Assembly (NCBI GenBank): GCA_047975765.1 | Contig: JBKEEF010000003.1 | Coordinates: forward strand, 3,923 to 67,922 | Origin: Alphaproteobacteria bacterium | GTDB taxonomy: Bacteria; Pseudomonadota; Alphaproteobacteria; RF32; CAG-239 | Length of the DNA: 64,000 nucleotides | Direction: 5' to 3' | In this document: piece after piece, positions 2,268-48,152 of the stretch | Layout of the letters: every line of letters begins with the position of its first letter | How positions within the stretch are numbered: the first letter of the stretch is position 1 | Notes under the pieces: model-generated | Databases searched by the model: none | Seen by the model: the letters and a program-made list of their open reading frames with translations, nothing else | Told to the model about the DNA's origin: nothing | Translations under genes and position numbers: made by a program

Positions 2268-3335
2268 TTGAAAAATTTCGGTAAACTCTGCATTATCCTC
2301 CTAAGCACCATAATTTTTTCCAAATTGGCATTTGCGCAAATGTCCATTTATGATGTTGATGTTTATGTTGATGTGACAGCAGAAAGTGCTGCTTCAGCAA
2401 AAGAAGAAGCGATGACACAAGCAAACAGAACTGCTTTCAATACAGTTGCTCGCAAAATCACGACAAACGAAACTTATGCTCTTCTTGCTGATATGAATGA
2501 TGATCAAATTTTGAACTTCATTAAAGAAGTGACGATTAAGTCTGAAAAATCATCAAACGTTCGCTACATGGCAAACCTTCGTGTGACAATTAATGATGAA
2601 CTTCTCAAACAATATATGGCTGAAAAAAGCATAACCCCTGCAATTGTTAGTGCGTCAAACATTCTCATCATCCCAACTTTCAGAGAATTCAAAACAGACA
2701 CTCCAATGCTTTGGGAAGCAGATAATATATGGAGAAAAGCTTGGGAAGAAGAAAATAACAAGGAAGATGATATTGTCAAATTTTCAAGCATTATCCCAAA
2801 TGGTTCAAACTATGCCAGTTTGGATGTAAAAAAAGCACTTAATTTGAATAAGTCAGCAATGGAACAAGTTTCTTTTAACAATGGAACATCAGATATCTAT
2901 GTTGCTGATGCTGTTTATAATGGAATTGAGGGAATCACTGTTAACATTTTGTCTTACCAAGATGGTAGTACGGAAGTTGTTGAAATTTATGGTGATCGTT
3001 CTCCACAGCTTTTAATCAACGCAATTGCTGAAGTTAAAAAAGCAATTATTAACAAGCTTAAAAATCAAAGTATCATTGAAAATACTCAAAGAAATAAAGT
3101 CACAGCAATTTATGATTATCGCAGTATGTCTGAATGGGTAAAGATTGAAAAATCACTTCGTGAAGTTGGCCGGGTTAATGACATTAAAATTGTGGCAATG
3201 ACAAGTGGTAAAGTTCAATTTGAAATTGATTTCACAGGCTCTTTAGAAAAACTTGAACAAAAACTAAATGCAAGAAATTTTTATCTCATTCCTCAGGGTG
3301 AGGCTTACATCCTAGAAAAAAGAGAACAACAATAG
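2268..3335 (+). CDS. Secreted hypothetical protein (signal peptide, TTG start)
   Basis: 355 aa; N-terminal hydrophobic signal LCIILLSTIIFSKLAFAQ; RBS AGGAGAG upstream of the TTG start; no recognisable domain. Confidence 0.5.
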   Translation: MKNFGKLCIILLSTIIFSKLAFAQMSIYDVDVYVDVTAESAASAKEEAMTQANRTAFNTVARKITTNETYALLADMNDDQILNFIKEVTIKSEKSSNVRYMANLRVTINDELLKQYMAEKSITPAIVSASNILIIPTFREFKTDTPMLWEADNIWRKAWEEENNKEDDIVKFSSIIPNGSNYASLDVKKALNLNKSAMEQVSFNNGTSDIYVADAVYNGIEGITVNILSYQDGSTEVVEIYGDRSPQLLINAIAEVKKAIINKLKNQSIIENTQRNKVTAIYDYRSMSEWVKIEKSLREVGRVNDIKIVAMTSGKVQFEIDFTGSLEKLEQKLNARNFYLIPQGEAYILEKREQQ

Positions 3336-3343
3336 GAAAAAAC

Positions 3344-4399
3344 ATGAAAAAATCCGGAAACAACTGGTTCTTTTGGCTCTCTATCTTTGCTCTCTTTTGC
3401 GTTTTTGTTTACGCAACAAGATCTGTCATCCTTCCTTTTGTTGCCGGAATTCTCATTGGCTACCTGTTTGACCCTTTTGTAGTGAAGCTTTCACGTTTCA
3501 AAATTAATAGAACATTAGCAACCTTTCTTGTTCTTCTCATTATCATTCTGATTTTGGTTCCTTCCTTCATCATTTTGATTAAAATTGCGAATGAACAAAT
3601 TGTGAGATTCATACATAGCCTTCCAAATTTGATTGCTTCTCTCAAAAATAAAATTGAACCTTTATTACAAGATGCCAACAAAAGCTTTCCATTTTTAACG
3701 ACTTCTGAAATTGTTGACTACATCAATAACAACGTCGCAAATTCAGTAAAATTTGCTGGTTCTATTTTGGGAAAAATTGTTAGTGGAAGCTTTGCTTTTG
3801 TAAACGTTGTTTCTCTCCTCATTATTACCCCTGTTGTGGCATTTTATATGCTTCGCGACTGGACACTCTTCACAAAGAAAATCGACGATTTACTCCCTGT
3901 CAAATCTAAAAAAGAGATTCGCTCCATTGCAAGCCAAGTGGACAAAGCTATTGCCGGTTTTATTAGAGGGCAACTCAGTGTATGTGTCATTTTAGGTTTA
4001 TTCTATTCTATGGGGCTTTATTTCATTGGGCTCCAACTTGGTGTTTTAGTTGGATTTATGGCAGGCTTAATCTCTTTCATTCCATACATTGGTTCAATCA
4101 GTGGTTTTGCAACATCAATCATCATTGCTTTGATTCAATTTGATACTTATTCTGAAGTCATTCAAGTTGTTTGCCTTTTCGGTTTAGGCCAAGTTTTAGA
4201 AGGAAGTTTCCTCACTCCAAAGCTCGTTGGAGATTCTGTTGGTCTTCACCCAGTTTGGATTATGTTTGCTTTGCTTGCTGGCGGTGTTTTACTTGGTTTC
4301 CTTGGTATTATGATTGCTGTTCCAATTGCTGCAATTATTGGCGTATTAACCAGACATTTCATCCAAAAATACAAAGAAAGCCAAATTTATAAGGGCTAA
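3344..4399 (+). CDS. AI-2E family (PerM/UPF0118) membrane transporter
   Basis: 351 aa polytopic membrane protein with architecture typical of the AI-2E family. Confidence 0.65.
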   Translation: MKKSGNNWFFWLSIFALFCVFVYATRSVILPFVAGILIGYLFDPFVVKLSRFKINRTLATFLVLLIIILILVPSFIILIKIANEQIVRFIHSLPNLIASLKNKIEPLLQDANKSFPFLTTSEIVDYINNNVANSVKFAGSILGKIVSGSFAFVNVVSLLIITPVVAFYMLRDWTLFTKKIDDLLPVKSKKEIRSIASQVDKAIAGFIRGQLSVCVILGLFYSMGLYFIGLQLGVLVGFMAGLISFIPYIGSISGFATSIIIALIQFDTYSEVIQVVCLFGLGQVLEGSFLTPKLVGDSVGLHPVWIMFALLAGGVLLGFLGIMIAVPIAAIIGVLTRHFIQKYKESQIYKG

Positions 4400-4481: not shown

Positions 4482-5531
4482 ATGATAAACTATATAATGA
4501 CCACAATGGACACTTATATCTTCAGTTCATTAATTATTCGAATTGTTCTGGCATTTTTGACAACTTTTTTGCTTTCAATTATATTTGGAAATAAAGCAAT
4601 TGCACTCCTTCGTGCAAAACAAGGAAAAGGTCAACCTATTCGTGAAGACGGACCTCAAAGCCATCTCCTCACAAAAAAAGGCACTCCAACAATGGGCGGG
4701 CTTTTGATTATTGCAACAACGCTTATCAGTTGTCTATTTTGGGCTAAATGGTCTAACATCTTTGTTCTCACATCTCTTGCTGTCTTAGTTATCTACGCTT
4801 TTGTGGGTTTCTTAGATGACTACGAAAAAGTGAAAAAACAAACATCAAATGCAATGAGTGCTAAAATGAAGCTCCTTCTTCAGTTTTCAGTTTCATTCAT
4901 TTGCGTACTCATCATCACTTATGCCACCCCAGATAATATAAAATATGACCTCAGATTCCCGTCAATCTACCCAATTTTTAGCACTTTCTCTATCAATCTT
5001 TTTTGGTTTTACATTCCATTTGCAATGGTGGTTATTGCAGGTGCTTCAAATGCTGTTAACCTTACAGACGGATTAGATGGTCTTGCCGCAGGACTTCTCA
5101 CCACAATATTCATTTTCTTCATTATGACTTGCCTTGAAACAAGCTTTATAATCAACGGCACACAAGAAGTGGCAGTTATTTGTTCAGCAGTTGCAGGAGC
5201 TTGCTTAGGTTTTCTATGGTTCAACTGCGCACCTGCGAAAATTTTTATGGGAGATACAGGTTCTCTAGCACTTGGTGCTTTACGTGGAACAATTTCTGTG
5301 CTCACCAAAAGTGAGATTGTTTTAGCAATTGTTGGGCTCATTTTTGTCATTGAAGCTGTTTCTGTGATGATTCAAATTTTCTGGTTCAAAAGAACAGGAA
5401 AAAGATTTTTCAAAATGGCACCAATCCATCATCATTTTGAACAAATGGGTATTCCTGAAACGACAATTGTTATAAGATTCTGGATTATCGGAATTCTACT
5501 TGCTGCATTTGGACTAATTGCTGTTTACTAA
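4482..5531 (+). CDS. mraY: Phospho-N-acetylmuramoyl-pentapeptide transferase
   Basis: 349 aa; MraY motifs (TKKGTPTMGG, NAVNLTDGLDGLA, MGDTGSLALG). Confidence 0.9.
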   Translation: MINYIMTTMDTYIFSSLIIRIVLAFLTTFLLSIIFGNKAIALLRAKQGKGQPIREDGPQSHLLTKKGTPTMGGLLIIATTLISCLFWAKWSNIFVLTSLAVLVIYAFVGFLDDYEKVKKQTSNAMSAKMKLLLQFSVSFICVLIITYATPDNIKYDLRFPSIYPIFSTFSINLFWFYIPFAMVVIAGASNAVNLTDGLDGLAAGLLTTIFIFFIMTCLETSFIINGTQEVAVICSAVAGACLGFLWFNCAPAKIFMGDTGSLALGALRGTISVLTKSEIVLAIVGLIFVIEAVSVMIQIFWFKRTGKRFFKMAPIHHHFEQMGIPETTIVIRFWIIGILLAAFGLIAVY

Positions 5532-5546
5532 AAGGAATAAACAAAG

Positions 5547-6677
5547 ATGTTTGCTTTTTCAAGAAATAGCAAAGGGATAATTGCCAACTGGTGGTGGACA
5601 GTGGACAAGGTGTTGCTCACTTGCCTCACCCTCATTATTATCATTGGAATTTTTCTCAACTTCACTGCTAGCCCTGCCGTTGCAAATCGCATTGGATTCG
5701 ACAGTTATCACTTTGTAAAAAGACAAATCTTTTTCTTACCAATAACCTATGGGCTTATGGTTTTGATTTCAATGCAAAGATTGAAAACAATTCGCCGTAT
5801 CGCTATCATTGGATATGTTATTACATTATTCCTCTTGTTGCTGACAATTTTTGGAGGTTATGAAACAAAAGGTGCTTCTCGTTGGATTAAAATTTTGGGT
5901 TTTTCACTTCAACCTTCAGAATTTGCAAAACCAACATTCATCGTAGTTTCTGCTTGGCTCTTTGATGGACAGATGAAAAATAAAAACTTCCCTGGAAACA
6001 TCATTTCATTTTTACTTTTTGGACTAACAGCAGGGCTTTTGATTTTACAGCCAGATTTTGGCATGACAATTGTTCTCACACTTATTTGGTTATTCCAATT
6101 TTTCCTTTCTGGACTTTCAATCACACTGGTAGCCATTCTTGTTTTTGGCTGTCTGATTATGGGTGTTCTGGCATATTTTACTCTAGACCATGTCCACACT
6201 CGAATTCAACAATTTCTGGACAATGAAAACAATCTGAGTTTTCAGATCAAAAAATCAATTGAAGCTTTTCAAAGTGGGAATATCTTTGGCAGAGGTCCTG
6301 GAGAAGGCATTGTTAAAGCACATATCCCCGATGCACACACAGACTTTATTTTCGCAGTTGCCGCAGAAGAATTTGGAATTTTTCTTTGCTTCATTATCAT
6401 TGGGCTGTTTTCCATTGTAGTCGTCCGTTCAATGATATTATCCATGAAAGATAATAACTTTTTTATCATTCTATCTGCTTCAGGACTTTCTGCTTCTTTC
6501 GGACTACAAGCAATTATCAATATGGCTTCAACAGTTCATCTCATCCCAACCAAAGGTATGACACTTCCATTTATCTCTTATGGTGGTTCTTCGCTTCTAG
6601 CCACAGCTCTTGGAATGGGAATTCTCTTGGCAGTGACCAGAAGGAACGTTCACGCTGAAGATAAAGATGATGAATAA
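5547..6677 (+). CDS. ftsW: SEDS-family peptidoglycan glycosyltransferase, FtsW-like
   Basis: 376 aa polytopic protein with FtsW/RodA conserved segments (QPSEFAKP, PDAHTDFIFA, LIPTKGMTLPFISYGGSS); sits in the dcw cluster. Confidence 0.8.
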   Translation: MFAFSRNSKGIIANWWWTVDKVLLTCLTLIIIIGIFLNFTASPAVANRIGFDSYHFVKRQIFFLPITYGLMVLISMQRLKTIRRIAIIGYVITLFLLLLTIFGGYETKGASRWIKILGFSLQPSEFAKPTFIVVSAWLFDGQMKNKNFPGNIISFLLFGLTAGLLILQPDFGMTIVLTLIWLFQFFLSGLSITLVAILVFGCLIMGVLAYFTLDHVHTRIQQFLDNENNLSFQIKKSIEAFQSGNIFGRGPGEGIVKAHIPDAHTDFIFAVAAEEFGIFLCFIIIGLFSIVVVRSMILSMKDNNFFIILSASGLSASFGLQAIINMASTVHLIPTKGMTLPFISYGGSSLLATALGMGILLAVTRRNVHAEDKDDE

Positions 6678-6693
6678 AAATTAAGGAAATGAT

Positions 6694-7629
6694 ATGCTAA
6701 AAAGATTTTTTAATAATATATTTAAAAAGAGCTTAATTAACATTCTTCCACAAGTTCGTGGAAAATATGTTGAAAATGCTCCAATGAGTAAACACACATG
6801 GTTTGCTGTTGGCGGTCCTGCTGAAGTTATGTTTTTTCCTGAAGATGAGGAAGACTTAAAATATTTTCTGAAAAACAAACCTTATAATGTTCCAGTCACT
6901 GTTGTTGGTGGAGGTTCAAACCTCTTGGTTCGTGACGGAGGTGTTCCAGGAGTGGTTATTAAACTAGATAGTCCATATTTCAGAAAACATTTTGTTAATC
7001 AAGATCGTTCCGTCACCTGTTTTGCAGGCAAAAAAAATGTTGAACTCAAAAAAACAATTTTAGAATGTGAGCTTAGTGGCATTGAATTTCTGTGTTCTAT
7101 TCCTGGAGCAATTGGTGGATGCGTAAAGACTAATGCTGGATGTTATGGAACTGAAGTCAAAGATGTTATTAAAGAAGCTAAAATTATTGATGGAATGGGA
7201 AATGAAAAAATTATTGGTGCTGATGATTTAAAACTTTCATATCGCAATAGCCTCTTTCCCGATGACTGGATTCTCATTTCTATAACCTTTAATACAAAAA
7301 AAGACACCCGAGAAAACATCCAAAAAACATTAGATGAACATCGCAAACACCGTATTGAAAAACAACCATATAACAAAAGAACTGCTGGTTCAACTTTCAA
7401 AAACCCTCAAGGTTTGAGAGCATGGGAACTCATCAAAAAGTCAGGTGCAGACAAATTTGAAGTTGGCGGTGCAAAAGTTTCTGAAAAACACTGTAACTTT
7501 CTCATCAATGAAGGAACAGCAACTGCAAGTGACATTGAAACTTTGGGTGAAAAAATTGTTCAAAGAGTGAAAGAAGAAACATCAATCACACTTGAATGGG
7601 AAGTTAAACGTTTAGGTATAAATAAGTAG
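6694..7629 (+). CDS. murB: UDP-N-acetylenolpyruvoylglucosamine reductase
   Basis: 311 aa; FAD-binding VGGGSNLLV and MurB C-terminal motifs. Confidence 0.85.
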   Translation: MLKRFFNNIFKKSLINILPQVRGKYVENAPMSKHTWFAVGGPAEVMFFPEDEEDLKYFLKNKPYNVPVTVVGGGSNLLVRDGGVPGVVIKLDSPYFRKHFVNQDRSVTCFAGKKNVELKKTILECELSGIEFLCSIPGAIGGCVKTNAGCYGTEVKDVIKEAKIIDGMGNEKIIGADDLKLSYRNSLFPDDWILISITFNTKKDTRENIQKTLDEHRKHRIEKQPYNKRTAGSTFKNPQGLRAWELIKKSGADKFEVGGAKVSEKHCNFLINEGTATASDIETLGEKIVQRVKEETSITLEWEVKRLGINK

Positions 7630-8493
7630 ATGTTATTCATAAAAACAAAAGAAAAAAGCGAAAACGACAAAAAGGTGATGCTTCCAAAGCATTGGCCCTT
7701 TCGTCTTATTGGAAATTTATTCCTCATTTCTTTTGTTTTTTGCCTTTCACTCATTACAATCACCATTCGTGAAGAACTTATCTCTAAAAAACTGACTGAT
7801 TTAGAACAAACTTTTTATGAAAAGACAACGAAGTTTGGTTTCACAATTGATGACATCATCATTGAAAACCGTCAAATCACCACGCTCAAAGAAATTGAAA
7901 AAGCTTTAGAGTTAACTCGTCAAAACAACATATTAAGCACACCTCCAAGAGTTATTAAGGAGAAATTAGAAAAACTGCCATGGATTAAAAATGCAATTGT
8001 CAAAAGAAACTATTTTCCAAACGTAATACAAGTCTCCTTGGTGGAAAAAGATGTCGAAGCTATTTGGCAACTAAATAACAAATTTTATCCAATTGATGAA
8101 GACGGAAAAGTCATTGATGCAGAATACATTCCAAATAAACCTGTTTTGTTAATTGTCGGAAAAGGAGCTCCAGACAACTTCAAAAACTTATTCCCAATCA
8201 TCAAAAACAACAATGAAATTTTCAAAAGAATCAAAGTTGCTAACTACATTTCAAATCGACGCTGGAACCTCATTCTAGACAATATTGAACATGGTATAAC
8301 CATAAAACTCCCTGAAGAAAACATTCCTCAAGCTTGGGAAAAGTTGATAAAAATAGACAAATCAGAAGGCATTATTAAGCGTAAATTAACTATCATAGAT
8401 TTAAGATTACCAAATAAAATTATCGTAAAAATCGGTAAAATGACCGATAAAGAAAAAGAAAATATAAAAAACACTAAAGAATCAAAAACTTAA
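7630..8493 (+). CDS. ftsQ: Cell division protein FtsQ (single TM + POTRA-like)
   Basis: 287 aa; N-terminal TM helix; lies between murB and ftsA. Confidence 0.7.
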   Translation: MLFIKTKEKSENDKKVMLPKHWPFRLIGNLFLISFVFCLSLITITIREELISKKLTDLEQTFYEKTTKFGFTIDDIIIENRQITTLKEIEKALELTRQNNILSTPPRVIKEKLEKLPWIKNAIVKRNYFPNVIQVSLVEKDVEAIWQLNNKFYPIDEDGKVIDAEYIPNKPVLLIVGKGAPDNFKNLFPIIKNNNEIFKRIKVANYISNRRWNLILDNIEHGITIKLPEENIPQAWEKLIKIDKSEGIIKRKLTIIDLRLPNKIIVKIGKMTDKEKENIKNTKESKT

Positions 8494-8507
8494 AAGAGGG
8501 AGCAACA

Positions 8508-9761
8508 GTGTCAAATTCTTTTAACCGACTAACTACCATTGCAGCATTAGATATTGGCTCATCAAAAGTGTGCTGTATTATTGCAAAAATCAGTCGTGAT
8601 AAAAAAGTTTCCGTTGTTGGCTATGGTTATAATGCATCAAAGGGAATCAAAAATGGTTGCATTACAGATATTAACCAAGCTACCCTTTCTGTCTGTAATG
8701 CTATTGAAAATGCTGAACAAATGGCAAATGAACGCATTGACCGCATCATTGTCAATATTGCAGGAGATAAAATCAAAAGTGCTATCAAAAGTGCTGTTAT
8801 TCCAATTGGAAAAAATAGACCTATCAATGAATCTGATATTGTTAAAGTTATTGAAAAAGGTAGCAGCAAAATCAATGTTGAAGACAATGAACTCATTCAC
8901 TGCATTCCAACCAGATACTGTGTCAACAATGGTGAAGAAACCAAAGACCCGAGAAACATTTTCAGTGAAACGCTTTCCGTAGATATTTTACTTGGTCTTG
9001 TTCCAGAAATCAATTTCAGAAATATGGCAACTGTCATTGAAAATTCTCATCTAGAAATTGCTGGAAAAGCTTTTTCATCTTATGCTTCATCTCTTTCTTG
9101 CTTAGTTGAAGATGAAAAAGAAATTGGAGCAACCATTATTGATATTGGTGGTGGAACAACAAGTATTGCCACATTCAGAAACGGCTACCCTATTTATTTC
9201 AACTCCATTGCAGTTGGTGGAAATAATATCACCAATGACATTGCTTGGGGTTTGACCACTTCTTTCACACACGCAGAAAGACTTAAAACACTTCACGGCT
9301 GTGCATTTCTAACTTCTCATGACGAAGAAGAAACACTCAATGTTTATCCTGTTGGAGAAGAAGATGACAGCTCTATTCGTCAAATTCCAAAATCTGACCT
9401 TATCAAGATAATCACACCGCGTGTTGAAGAAATCTTTGAATTAATCAATAAAAAGCTAGACGAATTGGGTCTAAAAGATGTATCAAGTCATCGTGTCGTT
9501 TTAACAGGAGGTTCAAGTCAGCTTCCTGGTATTAGAGAAATTGCTTCAATGGTTCTTGATAAACAAGTCAGACTAGGAAAACCAAGAAATAATTTCAGTC
9601 TTCCAGACAATCTTTATAATCCGGCTTTCTCAACTGCTGTCGGATTGATATTATTTGCACTGAATTATACAGAAAAAAAACCAAATAAAGTTATCAGCAA
9701 ATCAACATCAAACACTGGCTTTTTCAGCAGTATCTTTGGTTGGATGAAACAAAACTTTTAG
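8508..9761 (+). CDS. ftsA: Cell division protein FtsA (GTG start)
   Basis: 417 aa actin-like ATPase (ALDIGSSKV, DIGGGTT motifs); RBS AAGAGGG precedes the GTG. Confidence 0.9.
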   Translation: MSNSFNRLTTIAALDIGSSKVCCIIAKISRDKKVSVVGYGYNASKGIKNGCITDINQATLSVCNAIENAEQMANERIDRIIVNIAGDKIKSAIKSAVIPIGKNRPINESDIVKVIEKGSSKINVEDNELIHCIPTRYCVNNGEETKDPRNIFSETLSVDILLGLVPEINFRNMATVIENSHLEIAGKAFSSYASSLSCLVEDEKEIGATIIDIGGGTTSIATFRNGYPIYFNSIAVGGNNITNDIAWGLTTSFTHAERLKTLHGCAFLTSHDEEETLNVYPVGEEDDSSIRQIPKSDLIKIITPRVEEIFELINKKLDELGLKDVSSHRVVLTGGSSQLPGIREIASMVLDKQVRLGKPRNNFSLPDNLYNPAFSTAVGLILFALNYTEKKPNKVISKSTSNTGFFSSIFGWMKQNF

Positions 9762-9867
9762 GTTTTGACATAAAAATAACTAAAAAAACAATCTTAGTAA
9801 CTAAAACTTAAATTTTTAAGCTTATCCTATGGGTATGTATGAAGAATTCAATGGAGAAATAAACACA

Positions 9868-11562
9868 ATGTCTATCAAACTGACAGTACCAGAAAAGACA
9901 GTAATGCAGCTCAAACCGAGAATTTCCGTAATCGGTGTTGGTGGCGGCGGAGGAAATGCCGTTAATAATATGATTGTGCAAAATCTCGAAGGTGTAGATT
10001 TTATTGTCGCAAATACTGATGCGCAAGCTTTGGAAAATTCAAAAGCAGGACGCAAAATTCAGCTTGGACTAGAAACAACACGTGGTCTTGGTGCCGGTGC
10101 AAACCCTGATATTGGTAAAGTTTCTGCTGAAGAAGCTATGGAAGAAATTGAGAGAGAACTTGATGGTGTCAATATGGTGTTCATCACTGCTGGTATGGGT
10201 GGTGGAACAGGTTCTGGTGCCGCTCCTGTCATTGCAAGAATGGCAAGAGAAAAAGGTATTCTCACAGTTGGTGTCGTAACTAAACCTTTCCAATTTGAAG
10301 GACGCAAACGTTCAGAAATCGCTGACAGATCTATTGAAGAATTCTCAAAAAATGTAGATAGCATCATTATCATTCCAAACCAAAACCTTTTCAGAATTGC
10401 TGACAAAAACACAACTTTGGCAGATGCTTTTGTCATGGCTGATAATGTATTATATGCAGGCATACGTTCTATTACAGATTTAATGATTATGCCTGGCTTA
10501 ATCAATCTCGACTTTGCTGACGTAAAATCTATTATGGAAGGCAAAGGCAAAGCAATCATGGGAACTGGAGAAGCTGAAGGAGAAGAACGTGCGGTGAAAG
10601 CTGCTGAACAAGCTCTTTCTAATCCACTTTTAGATGATTGTTCTGTAATCGGCGCTCAAGGTGTTCTCATCAACATCACAGGTGGCGCTGATATCACTTT
10701 ATTTGAAATTGACGAAGCAGCAAATCGCATCAAAGAAGAAGTTGCAGAAGATGCAAACATCATCTTTGGTTCAAGCTATGATGATAATTTAATTGGAAAA
10801 ATTCGTGTTTCTATCGTTGCTACTGGAATTTCTTCTACACCGAAGGAAATCAGAAAACCAGTTATTCATGAACAAAAACCATTGGCTTCTAATATCATTA
10901 GTGAAGAAATCAATATTCCTAAAGAAACTTTGACAGCCAATCTTGAACAATTCTCTGCAACTAAAGTTGAAGAACATGACGACTACATTCCAAGTTCAAT
11001 CAAGGCTTTCGAAACATTTGAAACTTCTGTTATAGAAGATGAACTTGAAAGTATTCCAACTGAAACTGTTTTTGAAGAACCAACACAAAAGCCAATCAGA
11101 ATTGAAGATTTTGAAACTTATGAAGATCTAGAAAAATCAATTGTTATGGAAGAAATGCCAAAAGCATCTTCTCTCTTCAAAGCAATTGTTAATAAGCCAG
11201 AGAAACCAGTTTCTGAAAATCAATTTGAAATGGCTTTAGCTTCAACACAAAACACTTTTGCTCCAAAAACAACCATCAGAACTGTCGAGGAAGAATCAGA
11301 ACTTTTCCCTGAACATAATCAAGTCTCCTTCAATGCACGTCGCAATGATGCTCAGGAGGAACTCATTATGAATACAGCAGAAGACGAATATACACCAACA
11401 CTCATTGAAAGAGTGACTGGCTTTTCAATTGCAAAAAGAAATAAAAAGAAAAGAGAAGAAGAACAGTTCCAACAACCTGTTTCCTCTTCTTATGCAAGAG
11501 ATGACAATTATTCAGATAATAAGTTGAATCTTGAGATTCCATCTTTTTTACGTCGTAAATAA
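9868..11562 (+). CDS. ftsZ: Cell division GTPase FtsZ with long C-terminal linker; start taken at MSIKL
   Basis: [13 protein letters not shown] tubulin signature; C-terminal conserved peptide DIPSFLRRK. The track ORF starts at 9829, but the GGAG RBS favours 9868. The ~250 aa linker is typical of alphaproteobacteria. Confidence 0.9.
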
Positions 11563-11576
11563 TTGTTATAAACCAG

Positions 11577-11612
11577 AAAAAAGAGCAAGTTTCCTTGCTC
11601 TTTTTTTTGCAT
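11577..11612. terminator. Bidirectional rho-independent terminator between ftsZ (+) and the small membrane-protein gene (-)
   Basis: AAAAAAGAGCAAG-TTTCC-TTGCTCTTTTTTTT hairpin flanked by A and T runs. Confidence 0.6.
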
Positions 11613-12429: not shown

Positions 12430-12470
12430 TAACAAGAAAAAAAGAGGCTGCAATTTCTTGCAACCTCTTT
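12430..12470 (-). terminator. Rho-independent terminator downstream of rpoC
   Basis: On the minus transcript: GAGGUUGCAA-GAAA-UUGCAGCCUC stem followed by a U-run. Confidence 0.55.
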
Positions 12471-12488
12471 TTTTTATCAATAAGTCAA

Positions 12489-34895: not shown

Positions 34896-35594
34896 TTATT
34901 GTTTGCTTATGATCATTTTGAGTTTTCCAACAATGTTAAAATCCTCATCAAGAGAGAAACTCCAGCTTTCATATTCTGGGTTTATGGATTTTACCTTCAT
35001 TTCTTTGCCAATTCTTTGAAGTTGCTTAATATAACAATGCTTATCATAGTTAAAAGCATATATCCCATCATCTTCAAACTGGTCAACACTTCTGTCTATG
35101 ATGGCAATGTCGCCATTACTTAGCTTTGGCATCATAGAATCGCCTTTTATATATGCGCCAACGCAATGTGACGATAATTCAAAGGCTTCAACGAGTTCTT
35201 TTGATATGGTTATTGTGAATTGAATGTTTTCTTCATCTGCTAGCCAACCATTTCCGGCCGACAATGAAACGTCGTATATACTTATTTTTTGAGAACCTTT
35301 TCCAACTTTAACATTGTTTTTTATATATTTTTCACCTTTACCATAAACAAGCCAATCAAGATTGATGCCTTTATAATTAAGTAATTTTATTATTACATCT
35401 AATGTAGGGATATATTTTCCATTAAGATAATTTAAAAGAGTATCTTCAGACTTACCAGACACAATGGAAGCCTCTTTCCTATTTGAAAAATCATTATCCA
35501 ACACATCTCTTAGACGAGTTGAAACTTTTTCGTCGTAAGATTCAACTTTTTCTTTTTTTTCCATATCAAAAAACTTCCCTTGTTTTTCAAACAC
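34896..35594 (-). CDS. Phage repressor, HTH + S24 (LexA/cI-like) peptidase domain
   Basis: 232 aa; N-terminal HTH; C-terminal GDSMMP and KQL motifs of the S24 autopeptidase; divergent from ner. Confidence 0.75.
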   Translation of the reverse strand: MFEKQGKFFDMEKKEKVESYDEKVSTRLRDVLDNDFSNRKEASIVSGKSEDTLLNYLNGKYIPTLDVIIKLLNYKGINLDWLVYGKGEKYIKNNVKVGKGSQKISIYDVSLSAGNGWLADEENIQFTITISKELVEAFELSSHCVGAYIKGDSMMPKLSNGDIAIIDRSVDQFEDDGIYAFNYDKHCYIKQLQRIGKEMKVKSINPEYESWSFSLDEDFNIVGKLKMIISKQ

Positions 35595-35755: not shown

Positions 35756-36058
35756 ATGAATAAAAAGGATTTACATCCAGAATATATTAAGTATCTAGTA
35801 AGAAGCCAAGGAATGACCCTTGCGGCTCTTGCTAAAAAATACGGCTTCTCATCCTCTACAATTAAAACAGCTCTTAAAAAGCCAATGTTTTTTGGCGAAC
35901 AAATTATTGCGACGTTCTTGAATATTCATCCCATGAATTTGTGGCCTAGTAGATATGATGAAAAAGGAAACCCTTTACACCCACATGCCTCTGCTAATAA
36001 CCTTAAACCATTTTGCCCAAAAAATCAAGATGTTAAAAAAGGAGGTCAGAATGATTAA
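35756..36058 (+). CDS. ner: Ner-like DNA-binding protein (Mu Ner/Nlp family)
   Basis: DLHPEYIKYLVRSQGMTLAALAKKYGFSSSTIKTALKK...GEQIIATFLNIHPMNLWPSRY matches the Ner family signature. Confidence 0.75.
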   Translation: MNKKDLHPEYIKYLVRSQGMTLAALAKKYGFSSSTIKTALKKPMFFGEQIIATFLNIHPMNLWPSRYDEKGNPLHPHASANNLKPFCPKNQDVKKGGQND

Positions 36059-38141
36059 AAGATTTTATTCAATTCAAGAACTTCTAGAGCTTGGAATACC
36101 TAAGTTTCCAAAAACTCATTTTGGTATAATAAAAAAAGCAGAAAGAGAAAAATGGGTATTTCAAGAACGCAATAAATTGGGTGGCGGCCGAGAATATTCG
36201 TTAGATTCGCTTCCCGTTGAAGCTAAAGAATTTATTTTGAAAACTGAAATGGGAAACTCTCAAGAAGTTATAGAATATCAAAAGCAAGAATTGGCTAATC
36301 ACAGCAACGTTATTGATGTTAATGAACTCAAGCCTTATCAAAGAGAAGTTATTGATGCTAGAGCTATTATTTTAGCTGAAATTGATAGGTTGGCTCTTAT
36401 TTATGGTACGAACAAAGCTATTCAAAAATTTGTTGAACTTGTTTTTCAAGGTGATGTTCCTGAAGAAATAAAAAAAGCACTGGTCAAGGCTAATGCTAAA
36501 TCTGGCGGAAAACCTGTTAAAATTTCACGAGCAACAATTTTTAATTGGAAAAAAGCAATTAAAGAATCAGGAAGCATTGCGGGTCTTGCTCAAAAAGAAA
36601 TTAGAGAAGCAGACTGGCCAGCATGGGGTGATGCTTTGCTTAAATTGTGGCAAGTACCGGGCAAACCAAGCTTATCAACTGTCTTGGAAAATCTCGTTAA
36701 AATACTTCCTGTTTATATTGCTATTCCTAGTTACTCTGCAGCTCAAAGGTTTTTGAAAAAATTGCCGGCACAAGTCTTTAATAAAGGTCGTGTGGGTACT
36801 CGTGAGATGAAAAAATACAAGGCCTATGTTGCAAGAAGCACTGCAAATCTTTGGCCGACGGCAGTTTATACTGCGGATGGTCACACCTTTGATGCTGAGA
36901 TAGAAAACCCATTAACTGGAAAGCTTTTTAGACCAGAAATTACAACGGTTGTTGACGTATATACACGCAAGGTTGTTGGTTGGTCTCTTGATTTGAGTGA
37001 AAGAACAAATTCTGTATATATGGCTCTTACAAAATCAATCATTACTCATGGTATTCCTTGTATTTGGTATGTTGATAACGGAAAGGGTTTTAATAACCGT
37101 TATTTTGATGATGAGATGGTTGGCTTGTTGGCTCGTCTTAAAATTGAGAAAAAGAATTCAATCGCATATAACTCTCAAGCTCGTGGTATTGCTGAACGTA
37201 TCCACCAAACAATTTGGGTCAAAGCAGCAAAAAATTTAGCAACCTATATGGGGGCTGATATGGACACTCAAGCTAAGCAGGCTGTTTATAAAAAAACCAG
37301 AAAAGATATTAGCGAAAAAGGTCGTTCAGACTTGGTTATGAGTTGGGATAATTTTAAGGAATATTGTACAAAATGTGTTGAGATTTATAATAACACACCT
37401 CATAGATCACTGCCAGTGATTGTTGATCAGACTACCTATAAAAAACGTAATATGACACCTTCAGAGTTTTGGAACAAATCTGTTATGGATGGTTTTGAAG
37501 CTGAAAAATTGTCTCCTGCAGAAATCAAAGATCTGTATAGATACTATGAAGTTCGCAGAACAAATCGTGGGTTGGTTCAACTCTTTACAAATAGCTATTT
37601 TTCACTTGCTTTAGAACCTTATCATGGACGTGATGTTGCTGTTGCTTATGATATTCATGATGCTTCTAAAGTTTGGGTTCGTGAGCTTATGGAACTTGAT
37701 GGAGAGATGAAAGCAGGTAGACTTATTTGTGAAGCCATCTTTGAAGGCAACTCAAGAGAATATTTCCCAATTAGTAAGATTGAGTTTGAAAATCAAAAAC
37801 GTGCTGAGGGTCGTGTCAGAAGGCTTAAAGGTCACATGGAAGACGCACTAGATGAAACAAGAGCTAGATTCCTTGATCATCAAATTGATATTGAAGAAAT
37901 TACGACACCTAAAGAAGTTGAAAAACAAGAAAAACCACTTCTTGCAGAAAGCGACGAAAGACCGTTTTTTGCTGATGATGTGTCATGGGCTAAATGGCTT
38001 TTATCACATCCCGATAAAATTACAGATGGAGATGTTGAAAGCTTGATAGCTGCTTTGAAAAGCCCAGAAATGACAATGCTTTTTGAGGCAGAAGACATAA
38101 GCCTTTCTAATTTGAAAGAGCTTATAAAAAAAGCGGTCTAG
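36051..38141 (+). CDS. Mu A-like DDE transposase (start taken at MIKRFYSIQ, overlapping the ner stop)
   Basis: 696 aa; N-terminal winged-helix end-binding region (FYSIQELLELGIPKFPKTHFGIIKKAEREKW) and rve-like core (TADGHTFD...VGW); position after ner. Confidence 0.8.
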   Translation: MIKRFYSIQELLELGIPKFPKTHFGIIKKAEREKWVFQERNKLGGGREYSLDSLPVEAKEFILKTEMGNSQEVIEYQKQELANHSNVIDVNELKPYQREVIDARAIILAEIDRLALIYGTNKAIQKFVELVFQGDVPEEIKKALVKANAKSGGKPVKISRATIFNWKKAIKESGSIAGLAQKEIREADWPAWGDALLKLWQVPGKPSLSTVLENLVKILPVYIAIPSYSAAQRFLKKLPAQVFNKGRVGTREMKKYKAYVARSTANLWPTAVYTADGHTFDAEIENPLTGKLFRPEITTVVDVYTRKVVGWSLDLSERTNSVYMALTKSIITHGIPCIWYVDNGKGFNNRYFDDEMVGLLARLKIEKKNSIAYNSQARGIAERIHQTIWVKAAKNLATYMGADMDTQAKQAVYKKTRKDISEKGRSDLVMSWDNFKEYCTKCVEIYNNTPHRSLPVIVDQTTYKKRNMTPSEFWNKSVMDGFEAEKLSPAEIKDLYRYYEVRRTNRGLVQLFTNSYFSLALEPYHGRDVAVAYDIHDASKVWVRELMELDGEMKAGRLICEAIFEGNSREYFPISKIEFENQKRAEGRVRRLKGHMEDALDETRARFLDHQIDIEEITTPKEVEKQEKPLLAESDERPFFADDVSWAKWLLSHPDKITDGDVESLIAALKSPEMTMLFEAEDISLSNLKELIKKAV

Positions 38142-38200: not shown

Positions 38201-38959
38201 ATGAAAAACGAATTTGTAAAGACAGAAAATGTCAAAACCTTTTTAGAAGCTCTTACAAAGCTCTCTCTGAGAGGTGCTGGTGAAGCTTGTTTGATGGTTG
38301 TTGATGGACAACCAGGGTTAGGAAAAACTTGTGCCTTGAACTGGTGGGCAATCAGAAACGAATGTATTTATGTTAGAGCTAAAAAGGAATGGACACCAAA
38401 TTGGTTGATGAGAGATTTGTTAAATGCTCTTGGTGCAATTCCTGCGAACTCTTTTGAAAAAATGTTTCAGCAAACTCTACAACTTTTGGCTCAAAGATCC
38501 AGTGATGCTACGAGGGATGGAAAAGTTTTTGCTGTTATTATTGATGAGGTTGATTATATCTCTCGATCTTCAAAGATTTTGGAATCTTTAAGAGATCTGT
38601 CAGATTTCTTAGAAATTCCGTTTGTTTTTGTGGGTATGGGGGTTATTCGTCATAACCTTTCAAAATTTCCTCAGATTGCTAGTCGTATTGGTCAATATGT
38701 TGAATTTAAGCCATTGAGCTTAGAGGATACAAAAAACTTGATGAACACACTTTGCGATAAAAAGGTTGAAGAAAAGCTCATTGCCTTCACTCATAAAGTT
38801 ACTGCTGGTTATGTTAGAGAAATTAAAGAGGCTATTGCTTCAATTGATAGATTTTCAGCTCGTAATAGAAATATTGACACCGTTACTTTTGCTCAAATGG
38901 AAGGTCAAGTTTTGATGAACGACCGTAAGAATTCTAAACCTATCTTAGTTAGAGGGTAA
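38201..38959 (+). CDS. Mu B-like transposition ATPase (AAA+)
   Basis: 252 aa; Walker A GQPGLGKT, Walker B IIDEVD; directly after the transposase. Confidence 0.75.
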   Translation: MKNEFVKTENVKTFLEALTKLSLRGAGEACLMVVDGQPGLGKTCALNWWAIRNECIYVRAKKEWTPNWLMRDLLNALGAIPANSFEKMFQQTLQLLAQRSSDATRDGKVFAVIIDEVDYISRSSKILESLRDLSDFLEIPFVFVGMGVIRHNLSKFPQIASRIGQYVEFKPLSLEDTKNLMNTLCDKKVEEKLIAFTHKVTAGYVREIKEAIASIDRFSARNRNIDTVTFAQMEGQVLMNDRKNSKPILVRG

Positions 38960-40173: not shown

Positions 40174-40794
40174 ATGGAAAAAGAAATTGATGGAAAAATT
40201 TATTTAGAAGATGGTAAGGGAAATTTGACCCCTAAGTCTCAAGTTAAACCAATTGATTTGTTGAGAGATGATGTTGTCTCAGGATTGATTGAAAAAGCAA
40301 AAGAAACTTCTGCTCGTATTAAGGAATTTAAAAAACATGCTTTTGAAGAAATTTCAAAATTTATAGAAATTTCGGCAGAACAATACCAAGTTAAGCTTGG
40401 CGGAAAGAAAGGCAATGTAACTCTCTTTTCTTATGATGGACGTTTCAAAATTGAAAGAAGATGTGCTGAAAAAATAAATTTCGGAGAGCAACTTCATGCT
40501 GCAAAAGCTTTGATTGATGAATGTTTGAGAGAGTGGTCAGCTGGGGCAAATGATAAGCTTATCACTATTGTTAATCAAGCTTTTCAAGTTGATGAAAAAG
40601 GCAATATTTCAACTGCAGAAATTTTAGGGCTTAGAAAACATAATTTTACAGAACCAAAATGGCAAGAAGCAATGAAGGCAATTAGTGATGCAATCACAAT
40701 CGTTTCAAGCAAGGACTATGTCAGACTTTACGAAAGAGTTGGGGAAACTGATTTTTATAGCCCGATTTCATTGGATGTTGCTGCAGATTTTTAG
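40174..40794 (+). CDS. Mu-like prophage early protein (DUF3164-like)
   Basis: 206 aa; size and position match the conserved DUF3164 family of Mu-like prophages; assignment by resemblance only. Confidence 0.35.
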   Translation: MEKEIDGKIYLEDGKGNLTPKSQVKPIDLLRDDVVSGLIEKAKETSARIKEFKKHAFEEISKFIEISAEQYQVKLGGKKGNVTLFSYDGRFKIERRCAEKINFGEQLHAAKALIDECLREWSAGANDKLITIVNQAFQVDEKGNISTAEILGLRKHNFTEPKWQEAMKAISDAITIVSSKDYVRLYERVGETDFYSPISLDVAADF

Positions 40795-45011: not shown

Positions 45012-45539
45012 ATGACAGATAATTTTTTTGAAAAAGCATTTTCGCAAACATTTAAGACTGAGGGTGGTTATGTTAACAACCCGAATGATAGTGGTGGGCC
45101 AACTAAGTATGGGATAACTCTTAAGACTTATCGCCAATATTATCCTTCAGCAACAATCAATACAATAAAAAATTTAACTCCAGAACAAGCCAAAGTCTTT
45201 TATCGTGAATATTTCTGGCTCAAAAATGGCTATGATAAAATAAAAATTGAATGTTTTGCTCTTAAAGTTTTTGATGCTTGCGTCAATATGGGGGAGTTTC
45301 AAGCTCATCTTTGTCTTCAAAGAGCATTGAATTGTGTGGGTTCAAAATTAAAAGAAGATGGTGTTTTGGGAGAAAACACTCTTAAAGTTCTTAATTTTAC
45401 AGGTGATCCAACTTGGAACTTTGCAGTCTTATGTTCATACAAATCTGAACTTGCAGGATTTTATAGAGTTTTAATTGCAAAAAAGCCTAAAAATAAAGAG
45501 TTTGAAACGGGATGGTTGAAAAGGGCTTATCATGGTTGA
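45012..45539 (+). CDS. Endolysin, glycoside hydrolase family 108 N-acetylmuramidase-like
   Basis: EGGYVNNPNDSGGPTKYGIT GH108 signature with a PG-binding-like C-terminal part. Confidence 0.75.
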   Translation: MTDNFFEKAFSQTFKTEGGYVNNPNDSGGPTKYGITLKTYRQYYPSATINTIKNLTPEQAKVFYREYFWLKNGYDKIKIECFALKVFDACVNMGEFQAHLCLQRALNCVGSKLKEDGVLGENTLKVLNFTGDPTWNFAVLCSYKSELAGFYRVLIAKKPKNKEFETGWLKRAYHG

Positions 45540-45961: not shown

Positions 45962-46468
45962 ATGATGGCTTATGGTGTTAAACAAAAAAATGAGGTACGG
46001 AAGAATTATATTCATAAACTTCTACCGTTAACTCAAGCAGCAAAAATTGCTGGAGTACCAATTGCCACAGCCAGAAGGTGGAAAACACTTTCTTATGAGC
46101 AAGGGGATGACTGGGATAAACAAAAAGCAGCATCTTCATTAAGTTCAGGCAGCCGGGATGACTTAGTCAAGGTCTTGGTTAATGATTATGTCATTTTTCA
46201 TCAATCTGTTATGGAAAGTCTAAAAACTGCAGAAGCAATGACAGCTAAAGAAAAAGTTGATGCTTTAGCATCTCTTGCTGATGCTTTTTCAAAGACGATG
46301 AAATCTGCAGGACAAGCAAGCCCAGAGTTATCAAAACTTGCTGTTGCTAATGATATTATTCAGTTGCTTGGTGATTTTATCAAAAATAAATATCCTCAAC
46401 ATATTGTGGCTTTTTTAGAAATTATAGAACCTTTCGGTGAGGAGGTTGCTATTAACTATGGCAAATAA
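45962..46468 (+). CDS. Mu gp27-like terminase small subunit (DUF1804-like, HTH)
   Basis: LTQAAKIAGVPIATARRWK...GDDWDK N-terminal HTH typical of Mu-like small terminases; sits before the large terminase. Confidence 0.55.
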   Translation: MMAYGVKQKNEVRKNYIHKLLPLTQAAKIAGVPIATARRWKTLSYEQGDDWDKQKAASSLSSGSRDDLVKVLVNDYVIFHQSVMESLKTAEAMTAKEKVDALASLADAFSKTMKSAGQASPELSKLAVANDIIQLLGDFIKNKYPQHIVAFLEIIEPFGEEVAINYGK

Positions 46469-48152
46469 AGTCTCAAAATCAGATTTCAAAAAGACACTTT
46501 CAGATTATGCTCTGAATTTTAGAAAGCAAATTGAAAACGCAAATAGCGGTTTTGATGATTCAAAGCAAGCAGCGAATAAGAGAATTGCTGAAGCTTTTGT
46601 TGATTTTGAGTTTTTTTCAAGAACTTATTTTCCCCATTATATTAGAGATAAAAAAAATCCTCTCACGCAAATGCTTGAAAGAGTTAAGCCATCTTTGTTG
46701 CACAAATGGCTCTATCTTACTTTCCCTAAAATCTTTAAGTCTCCTTTTGGTGTTTCTCAGGCATTAGCCGCACCTCGTGGAGAAGCAAAAACAACTTATG
46801 TTATGATCGCAATTATGTATTGTATTGTTTATGATCTAAAACATTATATTTTGTTTATCCAAGATGTTTTTGATAATGCTGCCGTTTTGATTGAGGCAAT
46901 CAAAGCTGAATTAGAGTATAATCAAAGGCTCAAAAATGACTTCCCTCACGCCTGTGGAAAGAGTAGTATTTGGAAAGAAGGTGTTATTGTTACAAAAAAC
47001 AATATCAAGATTCATGCACGTGGTGCTGGTCAAAAACTTCGTGGTCTTAAGCATGGGGCTTTTCGTCCTGATCTCGTTATTCTAGATGATATTGAAAATG
47101 ATGAACTTGTGGTTCGTGTTGAAAATCGTAATAAACTCAATGAATGGCTCAATAAGGCTGTTGAAAACTTGGGTGAAGCCGGTGCAAAATTAGATATTAT
47201 TTATATTGGAACAATTCTTCACTATGACTCCGTTTTGAACCGCACACTTAATAACCCAATGTGGCAGTCAGTTATTTTTAAGGCAATTGTTGAATGGCCT
47301 CATAATATGGCTTTATGGGATAGATGGGAAGAAATTTTAAGAAATACTGATAAGGCAACTGCTCAAGCTGCAGCAGATGAGTTTTATTTTCAAAACAAAG
47401 CTCAAATGGATGAGGGAGCTGTCGTTTCGTGGCCTGATAAAAGAGATTTATATTCTTTGATGAAGTTAAGGGTGAAAGTTGGGACTGCATCCTTTGAAGC
47501 AGAATATCAAAATGACCCTCTTAGTTCTGAAGACGCAATTTTCACTGACTTTACTTATTGGAATGTTTTGTCTGAAAAATTGATATTCTTTGGTGCCGTT
47601 GATCCTTCACTTGGTAAAAAAGGGCAAAATCGTGACCCTTCAGCTATTGTGATTGGTGGAATTAATCGAACAACTATGAAAATGAAGTTGTTTGTTGCCG
47701 ATATCAAAAAACGTGTTCCTGATAAAATTATTTCAGATATGATTTATTATCAGAAAAAATACAATTGTGTTTTGTGGTTTGTTGAGACTGTCCAGTTCCA
47801 AGAATTTCTCAGAACAGAAATCCAAAGAAGAGCTAAGCTGGATAATGTTATTATGCCATGTATTGGTATTAATCAAAATGTTGACAAGGATTTGAGAATC
47901 CAAAGTTTGCAGCCTTATGTTAACGGTGGGGATATAGAGTTTGATCCAAGCCATTCAGCTCTTATCAATCAAATGAAACATTGGCCGAAAACTGCACATG
48001 ATGACGGTGTTGATGCACTGCATATTCTTTGGACTAATGCAGTCAAATATGCCAACAGAACTCAAACCGGTGGTCTTAAAACATTGAGCTCTATTGGGAG
48101 TTCATTGTTTAGAAGAAAAGAATGTAGGGTTGGCTTAAATGCGTATAAATAA
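46458..48152 (+). CDS. Terminase large subunit (Mu gp28-like); start taken at MANKV with GGAGG RBS
   Basis: ~565 aa; Walker-A-like AAPRGEAKTT; acidic nuclease residues in the C-terminal half; position after the small subunit. Confidence 0.7.
   Translation: MANKVSKSDFKKTLSDYALNFRKQIENANSGFDDSKQAANKRIAEAFVDFEFFSRTYFPHYIRDKKNPLTQMLERVKPSLLHKWLYLTFPKIFKSPFGVSQALAAPRGEAKTTYVMIAIMYCIVYDLKHYILFIQDVFDNAAVLIEAIKAELEYNQRLKNDFPHACGKSSIWKEGVIVTKNNIKIHARGAGQKLRGLKHGAFRPDLVILDDIENDELVVRVENRNKLNEWLNKAVENLGEAGAKLDIIYIGTILHYDSVLNRTLNNPMWQSVIFKAIVEWPHNMALWDRWEEILRNTDKATAQAAADEFYFQNKAQMDEGAVVSWPDKRDLYSLMKLRVKVGTASFEAEYQNDPLSSEDAIFTDFTYWNVLSEKLIFFGAVDPSLGKKGQNRDPSAIVIGGINRTTMKMKLFVADIKKRVPDKIISDMIYYQKKYNCVLWFVETVQFQEFLRTEIQRRAKLDNVIMPCIGINQNVDKDLRIQSLQPYVNGGDIEFDPSHSALINQMKHWPKTAHDDGVDALHILWTNAVKYANRTQTGGLKTLSSIGSSLFRRKECRVGLNAYK

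Follow-up and report, generated by a model that had tools for sequence, protein, structure and literature searches.

A 64-kb stretch of alphaproteobacterial DNA (hereafter the window; GC 35%) carries a shortened dcw cluster made up of mraY, ftsW, murB, ftsQ, ftsA and ftsZ. We find that this arrangement is very probably a lineage-specific, inherited contraction within a gut clade of uncultured Alphaproteobacteria, with the absent genes most likely residing elsewhere in the chromosome. Few gene orders in Bacteria are as well conserved as that of the dcw cluster, and an intact cluster has been associated with cell shape and with coordinated synthesis of the wall. No description of dcw organization in this gut clade was found in the literature.

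Gene content and architecture of the cluster

NCBIfam and Pfam scans place all six genes head to tail on the forward strand between positions 4482 and 11562 (Table 1), in agreement with a sequence-only reading of this DNA that had named the same contracted cluster. MraY, MurB, FtsA and FtsZ exceed their NCBIfam equivalog cut-offs, which supports the orthology of the retained genes to the dcw genes of relatives. FtsW scores 1.7 bits below the TIGR02614 cut-off, and the RodA model gives just 232 bits. Precursor and divisome genes are co-oriented and collinear, keep their canonical relative order, and end in ftsQ-ftsA-ftsZ, as expected of a dcw cluster.

Table 1. Features of the window, with positions counted from its first nucleotide
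Feature	Position	Strand	Evidence and remarks
Secreted 355-aa hypothetical protein	2268-3335	+	Signal-peptide-like N-terminal segment; no family
AI-2E family transporter	3344-4399	+	Pfam PF01594
mraY (phospho-MurNAc-pentapeptide transferase)	4482-5531	+	TIGR00445, 337.5 bits (cut-off 192), full length; opens the cluster
ftsW (SEDS peptidoglycan polymerase, divisome)	5547-6677	+	TIGR02614, 335.8 bits (cut-off 337.5); directly 3' of mraY, without murD
ftsW/murB junction, proposed murG-deletion scar	6664-6693	+	ftsW 3' end GATAAAGATGATGAATAA; 16-nt spacer with AGGA, then murB ATG
murB (UDP-N-acetylenolpyruvoylglucosamine reductase)	6694-7629	+	NF010480, 351 bits (cut-off 259)
ftsQ	7630-8493	+	Pfam POTRA_1 and FtsQ_DivIB_C; ddl absent before ftsQ
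ftsA	8508-9761	+	TIGR01174, 338 bits (cut-off 176)
ftsZ (577 aa, long C-terminal linker)	9829-11562	+	TIGR00065, 402 bits (cut-off 295)
Candidate terminator (A-run/hairpin/T-run)	11577-11606		13 pairs, just past ftsZ; consensus match only
Prophage endolysin, outside the cluster	45012-45539	+	GH108 muramidase PF05838 (5e-25); peptidoglycan-binding domain PF09374 (2e-8); NF040573 holin-associated N-acetylmuramidase

The junctions are tight, in-register and operon-like, with ribosome-binding sites, and intergenic gaps across the six genes range from 0 to 67 nt. Read directly from the sequence, the TAA of mraY (ending at 5531) lies 15 nt before the ATG of ftsW (5547), the TAA of ftsW (ending at 6677) lies 16 nt before the ATG of murB (6694), and the TAG of murB (ending at 7629) is followed after 0 nt by the ATG of ftsQ (7630). 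These are the spacings that had been claimed. The hairpin beyond ftsZ is likely an intrinsic terminator acting in both directions, at which the operon would end. A promoter scan gave about as many matches as chance predicts (37, with 36.3 expected) and is uninformative on internal promoters.

Upstream of mraY lie, in order, pta (reverse strand), ndk, the 355-aa protein and the AI-2E family transporter. The AI-2E transporter and secreted hypothetical described earlier from the letters alone are thus both borne out, by Pfam family and by a signal-peptide-like segment, respectively. The 355-aa protein has no match in Pfam, NCBIfam or PDB sequences. The pair at 2268-4399 occupies the place expected for mraZ-rsmH-ftsL-ftsI-murE-murF.

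None of murC, murD, murE, murF, murG, ddl or ftsI was found in the 64-kb window by tblastn with Nisaea proteins (E<=0.01), and family scans of the remaining window ORFs revealed no Mur ligase, murG, ddl or ftsI. The clean local absence of murD, murG, murC and ddl therefore stands. The locus does not have the canonical proteobacterial form, in which murC, murD, murE, murF, murG, ddl and ftsI lie in the cluster. With the canonical alphaproteobacterial dcw (mraZ-rsmH-ftsL-ftsI-murE-murF-mraY-murD-ftsW-murG-murC-murB-ddl-ftsQ-ftsA-ftsZ) it shares orientation, relative order, the ftsQ-ftsA-ftsZ end and tight junctions, and 45-50% identity of its genes to those of Nisaea, Dongia and Caedibacter supports orthology. 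However, 10 of the 16 genes (mraZ, rsmH, ftsL, ftsI, murE, murF, murD, murG, murC and ddl) are absent, and the unrelated ndk, secreted hypothetical and AI-2E transporter genes lie upstream instead.

Distribution across the gut clade and departure of murG

The contracted cluster is not a one-off. Synteny with related genomes, the comparison that the sequence-only reading had recommended, places it in 23/23 of the nearest species-level genomes, all MAGs of uncultured gut Alphaproteobacteria from human, mouse, ruminant or rabbit (MurB 59-85% identical; GC 33-50%). In every one of these, as in the window, mraY is followed directly by ftsW and murB directly by ftsQ, and ftsI, murE and murF are missing upstream. 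Our survey covered 64 kb of the window genome and roughly 20 kb of each relative. In both directions, up to 10 kb from the cluster, murD, murC, ddl, murE, murF and ftsI are absent from all 23 relatives, with the exception of ddl in one (L009). There, an intact ddl (305 aa, 47% identical to Nisaea Ddl) lies 2.7 kb 3' of ftsZ and is followed by miaA and mreB. By contrast, some 50 loci from other Alphaproteobacteria show the canonical order ftsI-murE-murF-mraY-murD-ftsW-murG-murC-murB-ddl-ftsQ-ftsA-ftsZ, in line with the order that had been quoted for comparison.

The clade contigs, which reach 488 kb, encode pta-ackA, porin, ExbBD and flagellar export, as is typical of free-living bacteria. The contraction is an old trait shared by at least 23 gut species of free-living type, and not a recent decay. 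The context pta-ndk-hypothetical-AI-2E-mraY is common to nine of the loci examined (L002, L006, L011, L013, L023, L082, L087, L089 and L177).

Two forms of the cluster occur within the clade. Sixteen of the 23 relatives have mraY-ftsW-murG-murB-ftsQ-ftsA-ftsZ, while 7/23 (L002, L003-5, L012, L019 and L024, from different studies) lack murG and have the gene order of the window. The murG-containing form (e.g., “Proteobacteria bacterium CAG:495”, L013) shares the contraction at 57-77% protein identity and often the upstream pta-ndk-hypothetical-AI-2E context; the window and six other species differ from it in having no murG between ftsW and murB. Four absences that had been treated as a single event are therefore separable. 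The genes murD, murC and ddl, together with ftsI, murE and murF, are gone clade-wide, whereas the loss of murG is a later, lineage-specific deletion.

We compared the ftsW/murB junction with murG-positive L087, L089, L082, L006 and L013 and with murG-negative L003. In murG-containing relatives, the AAAGATGA context at the ftsW 3' end holds an overlapping murG start codon. Retention of AAAGATGA at the ftsW 3' end in both the window and L003 indicates descent from an ancestor that had murG, followed by ORF-level deletions. Furthermore, the window and L002, a MAG of the same genus (JAQWBS01), nest among murG-containing genomes in a neighbor-joining tree of six proteins, share the upstream synteny of those genomes, and have their highest identities with them. 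This suggests that murG probably departed from the cluster on more than one occasion; the genomes without it fall into three lineages.

Relocation and its alternatives

The sequence-only reading had left the choice between relocation and reduction of the peptidoglycan genes. Relocation is favored by purifying selection, by the ddl of L009, by the prophage endolysin and by the persistence of the trait in at least 23 species; reduction is not. Between the window and L002, its closest relative, both without murG in the cluster, dN/dS is 0.064 for mraY, 0.061 for ftsW and 0.055 for murB, equal to the reference values for rpoC (0.066) and pta (0.062), although all are approximate because dS is saturated (1.4-2.1). 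Purifying selection on mraY, ftsW and murB is thus strong. The remaining peptidoglycan genes show neither decay nor relaxed selection, and their ORFs and profile matches are full length.

MraY uses UDP-MurNAc-pentapeptide, the product of MurC, MurD, MurE, MurF and Ddl, and FtsW requires lipid II, which is made by MurG. The retained genes thus depend on the absent ones as essential partners, and the latter most likely lie elsewhere in the chromosome; a loss of peptidoglycan synthesis is unlikely. Circumstantially, the peptidoglycan-binding domain of the prophage endolysin also suggests that the host wall contains peptidoglycan.

The operon of the clade retains the lipid-linked steps (mraY, ftsW and mostly murG), together with murB and the divisome genes (ftsQ, ftsA, ftsZ), while the cytoplasmic ligase genes (murC, murD, murE, murF and ddl), ftsI and mraZ-rsmH-ftsL have departed from it. 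Under relocation, such moves may have passed through a transient second copy, and murC, murD, murE, murF, murG, ddl and ftsI would all be present elsewhere in the window genome. In the window's genus, an additional clean deletion of about 1.1 kb removed murG but spared the murB ribosome-binding spacer, so that the six genes still form one tightly packed unit up to the likely terminator.

Targeted searches were made for two of the absent genes. One query was MurC from L060, a lineage of low GC whose cluster is partly contracted. The best 120 matches to this query were generic Alphaproteobacteria and were rejected as clade MurC, each being matched at 55% or more in non-clade loci; one candidate among them, P0020, sits in a canonical cluster. 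Among 150 representatives (50%-identity clusters, same query), from which candidates were chosen by alphaproteobacterial similarity and composition, no alphaproteobacterial-type clade MurC was identified. P0271 is Hepatincola, P0246 is Holosporales-like, and P0245, the best 50%-identity candidate, comes from a lake/marine lineage with a murC-murB-ddl-ftsQ sub-cluster. For murG located out of the cluster, an HMM built from 14 clade MurG proteins retrieved more than 120 clade members at 603-649 bits. Eight further metagenome proteins from the clade, picked for reference divergence, AT-rich composition or NCBI origin, were examined, and none (0/8) lay out of the cluster: all were in the mraY-ftsW-murG-murB-ftsQ-ftsA-ftsZ context.

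These results bear on genuine reduction, in which the Mur ligases and Ddl, as well as MurG in the window's genus, have been lost and peptidoglycan is missing or a remnant, as in some obligate intracellular bacteria. The searches yielded neither a MurC of the clade nor a MurG located outside the cluster, the genes are absent from the window and, in 22/23 relatives, from the 10 kb on each side of the cluster, and the window is low in GC; all of this would fit such a loss. We nevertheless consider it very improbable, because mraY, ftsW and murB are intact with a dN/dS of about 0.06, as for rpoC, and to our knowledge have no role without their substrates. L009 has both ddl and mreB, the arrangement persists in 23 or more species whose gene content is that of free-living bacteria, and the prophage endolysin bears a peptidoglycan-binding domain. 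A related reading would hold that the window's genus and the six other murG-less species lack a canonical MurG, or that canonical Mur ligases are missing throughout the clade, and that lipid II is made by non-orthologous enzymes. If so, selection would continue to act on mraY, ftsW and murB with their classical partners gone. MurG2 is described as able to replace MurG in some Actinobacteria (PMC8092295), but for this clade we regard such a substitution as highly unlikely.

Xenologous replacement, in which some native cluster genes were deleted after horizontally acquired equivalents had been inserted elsewhere, is improbable, if somewhat less so; the enzymes would then be present but not of alphaproteobacterial type. 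The dense gut community is a suitable habitat for it, and an alphaproteobacterial-type clade MurC was identified neither among the best 120 matches nor among the 150 representatives, with P0249, P0252 and P0244 as further candidates. Nevertheless, the unsuccessful MurC searches have simpler technical explanations, and the identity of L009 Ddl to its Nisaea counterpart is on par with that of vertically inherited clade proteins. A collapsed or chimeric contig could also shorten a cluster. The source appears to be metagenome-derived, and the exact FtsZ is recorded only in the Logan assembly of run SRR30067233. That independent assembly (L001), however, reproduces the arrangement of the window, which recurs at about 83% protein identity in the separate MAG L002; this argues against misassembly. 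With the same order also in L003-5, L012, L019 and L024, and with in-register junctions that keep their ribosome-binding sites, the chance of an assembly or binning artefact is negligible.

Comparison with other dispersed clusters

With the absent genes most likely elsewhere in the genome, the shortened cluster would be an ordinary gene-order variant; dispersal of dcw genes is already known. For annotation, this means that a short dcw locus is no ground for inferring peptidoglycan loss. In the abundant, uncultured gut clade, contraction can be followed through successive natural stages, from the canonical 13 genes through a seven-gene to a six-gene core. This series could help to show which steps need co-transcription: the lipid-linked steps and the divisome would, and the soluble ligases would not.

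Partial contraction is seen in other Alphaproteobacteria. L173 and L175 have a collinear cluster without murD and ddl; murF, murD and ddl are absent from that of L060, murF and ddl from that of L062, and ddl from those of Kordiimonas (L073 and L076). A neighbor-joining tree placed L060, L173 and L175 as the sister lineage, a placement given no weight, their identity to the window being no higher than that of Nisaea. A low-GC lineage from lake and marine habitats (L095-L112) keeps only a murC-murB-ddl-ftsQ sub-cluster, and Rickettsia presumably has a similar murC-murB-ddl-ftsQ-ftsA sub-cluster. In these partly contracted lineages, the ligases stay beside murB, or ftsI and murE remain in place. 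In the window, by contrast, all ATP-dependent ligases and ftsI are gone from the locus, and murB remains with the membrane-step and divisome genes.

Surveys describe the history of dcw as one in which genes were lost or delocalized, murC, murB and ddlB often lying outside the cluster (PMC8871954). Cyanobacteria and other phyla produce peptidoglycan with dcw genes that are present yet delocalized (PMC8871954). In Cyanobacteria, nearly all dcw genes are scattered, whereas the gut clade strictly conserves a compact core of six or seven genes.

The six-gene cluster

Six open reading frames lie head to tail on the plus strand at 4482-11562. Profile searches give their identities and, with the junction sequences, confirm that the cluster of genes for division and the cell wall (dcw) is short and cleanly contracted, as the sequence-only reading had observed. 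The spacers it gave are exact: mraY and ftsW are separated by 15 nt and ftsW and murB by 16 nt, with an AGGA in both gaps, while the ftsQ ATG occupies the very next base after the murB stop. The local absence of murD, murG, murC and ddl also holds, as canonical-cluster queries for MurC, MurD, MurE, MurF, MurG, Ddl and FtsI gave no tblastn match (E ≤ 0.01) in the whole 64 kb.

Features of the window and of related loci (window unless a locus is named)
Feature	Position	Strand	Detail
355-aa protein and AI-2E transporter	2268-4399		
mraY	4482-5531	+	TIGR00445, 337.5 bits, cut-off 192
ftsW	5547-6677	+	TIGR02614, 335.8 bits, just under cut-off 337.5; RodA model only 232
murB	6694-7629	+	NF010480, 351 bits, cut-off 259
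ftsQ	7630-8493	+	POTRA_1 and FtsQ_DivIB_C
ftsA	8508-9761	+	TIGR01174, 338 bits, cut-off 176
ftsZ	9829-11562	+	TIGR00065, 402 bits, cut-off 295
First palindrome	11577-11606		
Second palindrome	12437-12474		
Mu-like prophage	34896-64000		transposable type
S24/CI-type repressor	34896-35594	-	prophage
DDE transposase	35955-38141		prophage
MuB-like AAA ATPase	38201-38959		prophage
DUF3164	40174-40794		prophage
GH108 endolysin (muramidase)	45012-45539		prophage; peptidoglycan-binding domain
Large terminase	46437-48152		prophage
Virion morphogenesis protein	54594-55019		prophage
Tape measure	58152-60008		prophage
Baseplate V	62077-62697		prophage
ddl-miaA-mreB	L009 17489-20494		
MurE-MurF fusion	L173 3348-6431		1027 aa; low-GC alphaproteobacterial lineage
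MurE-MurF fusion	L175 3558-6482		974 aa; low-GC alphaproteobacterial lineage

Distribution and history of the contraction

The short cluster is neither an artefact nor peculiar to this genome. The only recorded identical FtsZ comes from a Logan assembly of run SRR30067233, and its gene order matches that of the window. We scanned one genome per species with the window MurB, which gave 80 loci, and located dcw genes on all of them in tblastn searches with the proteins of the window and of the Nisaea denitrificans cluster as queries. The 23 best loci (MurB identity 59-85%, GC 33-50%) come from MAGs of uncultured Alphaproteobacteria from gut samples (human, mouse, ruminant, rabbit and others), including "Proteobacteria bacterium CAG:495"; we take these to be GTDB order RF32. 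Beyond them, MurB identity is at most 49% (Rhodospirillales, Hyphomicrobiales, Kordiimonas, Caedibacter and others), and about 50 distant loci have the canonical ftsI-murE-murF-mraY-murD-ftsW-murG-murC-murB-ddl-ftsQ-ftsA-ftsZ. The synteny comparison proposed by the sequence-only reading found the contraction in all 23 closest species. Sixteen carry mraY-ftsW-murG-murB-ftsQ-ftsA-ftsZ, and seven (L002, L003, L004, L005, L012, L019 and L024) lack murG as the window does. Within 10 kb of the cluster, tblastn placed murD, murC, murE, murF and ftsI in none of the 23 and ddl in L009 only. Eight of eight further metagenomic MurG proteins from the clade sit in the seven-gene form, and the pta-ndk-hypothetical-AI2E upstream context is common to the window and many murG-containing members. 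Thus, the trait is old, inherited and strictly conserved in a large clade.

Where murG is present, its ATG overlaps the final ftsW codons (…GATAAAGATGAAAC…TAA). The ftsW genes of the window (…GATAAAGATGATGAATAA) and L003 (…GATAAAGATGAAACATTTTAA) retain this start context; behind it come a short spacer carrying a ribosome-binding site and murB itself. The arrangement is consistent with an ancestor that had murG and with deletions at the ORF level. In a six-protein neighbor-joining tree, the window and its closest relative, L002, nest among murG-containing genomes, which also match them in upstream synteny and show the highest identities to them (FtsW 71% and FtsA 77% to L006, versus 63% and 67% to the murG-less L003). 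The remaining murG-less lineages branch elsewhere. These scattered positions make two or more departures of murG from the operon probable, although the tree is rough.

Other sampled Alphaproteobacteria depart less from the canonical order. In L173 and L175, murD and ddl are missing and MurE is fused to MurF, in a fusion of a known class (PMC10214165). L060 lacks murF, murD and ddl in its cluster, L062 murF and ddl, and Kordiimonas ddl; in L052, L056 and L071, the cluster appears split. In the window, all soluble ATP-dependent ligases and ftsI are gone from the locus, whereas the lipid-linked steps, murB and ftsQ-ftsA-ftsZ remain together. By this comparison, the arrangement adds a rather extreme case to a phenomenon already known; we found no description of it for this gut clade in the literature. 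A lake and marine lineage (L093-L118; metagenome contigs, GC 29-40%) shows a complementary split: a murC-murB-ddl-ftsQ sub-cluster with murG missing upstream and ftsA and ftsZ missing downstream.

Whereabouts of the missing genes

The sequence-only reading offered relocation or reduction; the contraction stands, relocation is much more likely than reduction, and the missing genes have very probably moved elsewhere within the genome. Between the window and L002, both without in-cluster murG, dN/dS is 0.064 for mraY, 0.061 for ftsW and 0.055 for murB, indistinguishable from rpoC (0.066) and pta (0.062), although saturated dS makes these ratios approximate. In the established pathway, MraY uses UDP-MurNAc-pentapeptide, the product of MurC, MurD, MurE, MurF and Ddl, and the lipid II that FtsW polymerises comes from MurG. 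Purifying selection on mraY, ftsW and murB, together with this dependence, therefore implies that the partner enzymes exist. In L009, an intact ddl with 47% identity to Nisaea Ddl lies 2.7 kb beyond ftsZ, with miaA and mreB after it; ddl, at least, is demonstrably delocalised in the clade rather than lost. No other dcw gene was seen relocated within the clade. ORF translations place a U32-type peptidase-like gene and another minus-strand gene between ftsZ and ddl.

Real loss of the missing cell-wall genes is very unlikely given this selection and the L009 ddl, and also because the window prophage encodes a muramidase and the clade loci are flanked by genes typical of free-living Gram-negatives (porin, ExbBD, flagellar export and acetate metabolism), on contigs of up to 488 kb. 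Xenologous replacement by equivalent genes elsewhere in the genome is unlikely, if somewhat less so than loss. An assembly artefact has next to no probability, as the Logan assembly and every close relative repeat the contraction. The one striking reading would be that MurG or the Mur ligases are truly absent or replaced by non-orthologous enzymes, yet it is improbable.

Direct searches were null, mostly for technical reasons. With the L060 MurC as a protein-database query, only other Alphaproteobacteria were among the matches listed. Those listed for a clade MurG profile were dominated by in-cluster members (eight of eight examined). One candidate clade MurC among 50%-identity representatives, P0245, was rejected, as it comes from the lake and marine low-GC lineage, with murC inside murC-murB-ddl-ftsQ. 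A concatenated MurC query matched natural multi-enzyme fusions (P0398-P0414): by Pfam content, putative FtsW-MurG-MurC (1206 aa), MurC-MurB-Ddl (about 1060 aa) and MurG-MurC-MurB (about 1190 aa) proteins, and MurC domains joined to NRPS-like adenylation, carrier and thioesterase domains (about 1300 aa).

Surroundings of the cluster

Upstream of mraY, the order is pta (on the minus strand), ndk, a gene for a 355-aa protein and one for an AI-2E family transporter, so both the transporter and the secreted hypothetical noted earlier are present. The 355-aa protein has a signal-peptide-like N-terminus and matched no family or PDB entry. Many clade members keep this pair directly upstream of mraY (seen in L002, L006, L011, L013, L023, L082, L087, L089 and L177), and a functional tie to the division operon is possible; in L020, the whole block is inverted. 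Two long A-run/hairpin/T-run palindromes, one 3′ of ftsZ before a convergent hypothetical gene and the other between the second hypothetical gene and rpoC, look like putative bidirectional terminators. The remaining window holds these two hypothetical genes, rpoC-rpoB, ribosomal protein genes, nusG, a porin and transporters, and a prophage from about 35 kb to its end. The GC skew stays below zero between ~12 and 34 kb and becomes positive at ~36 kb, the point of the cumulative minimum, where minus-strand genes (rpoBC, ribosomal proteins) give way to plus-strand prophage genes; gene orientation or the boundary of the prophage may account for the turn, which does not require a replication landmark.
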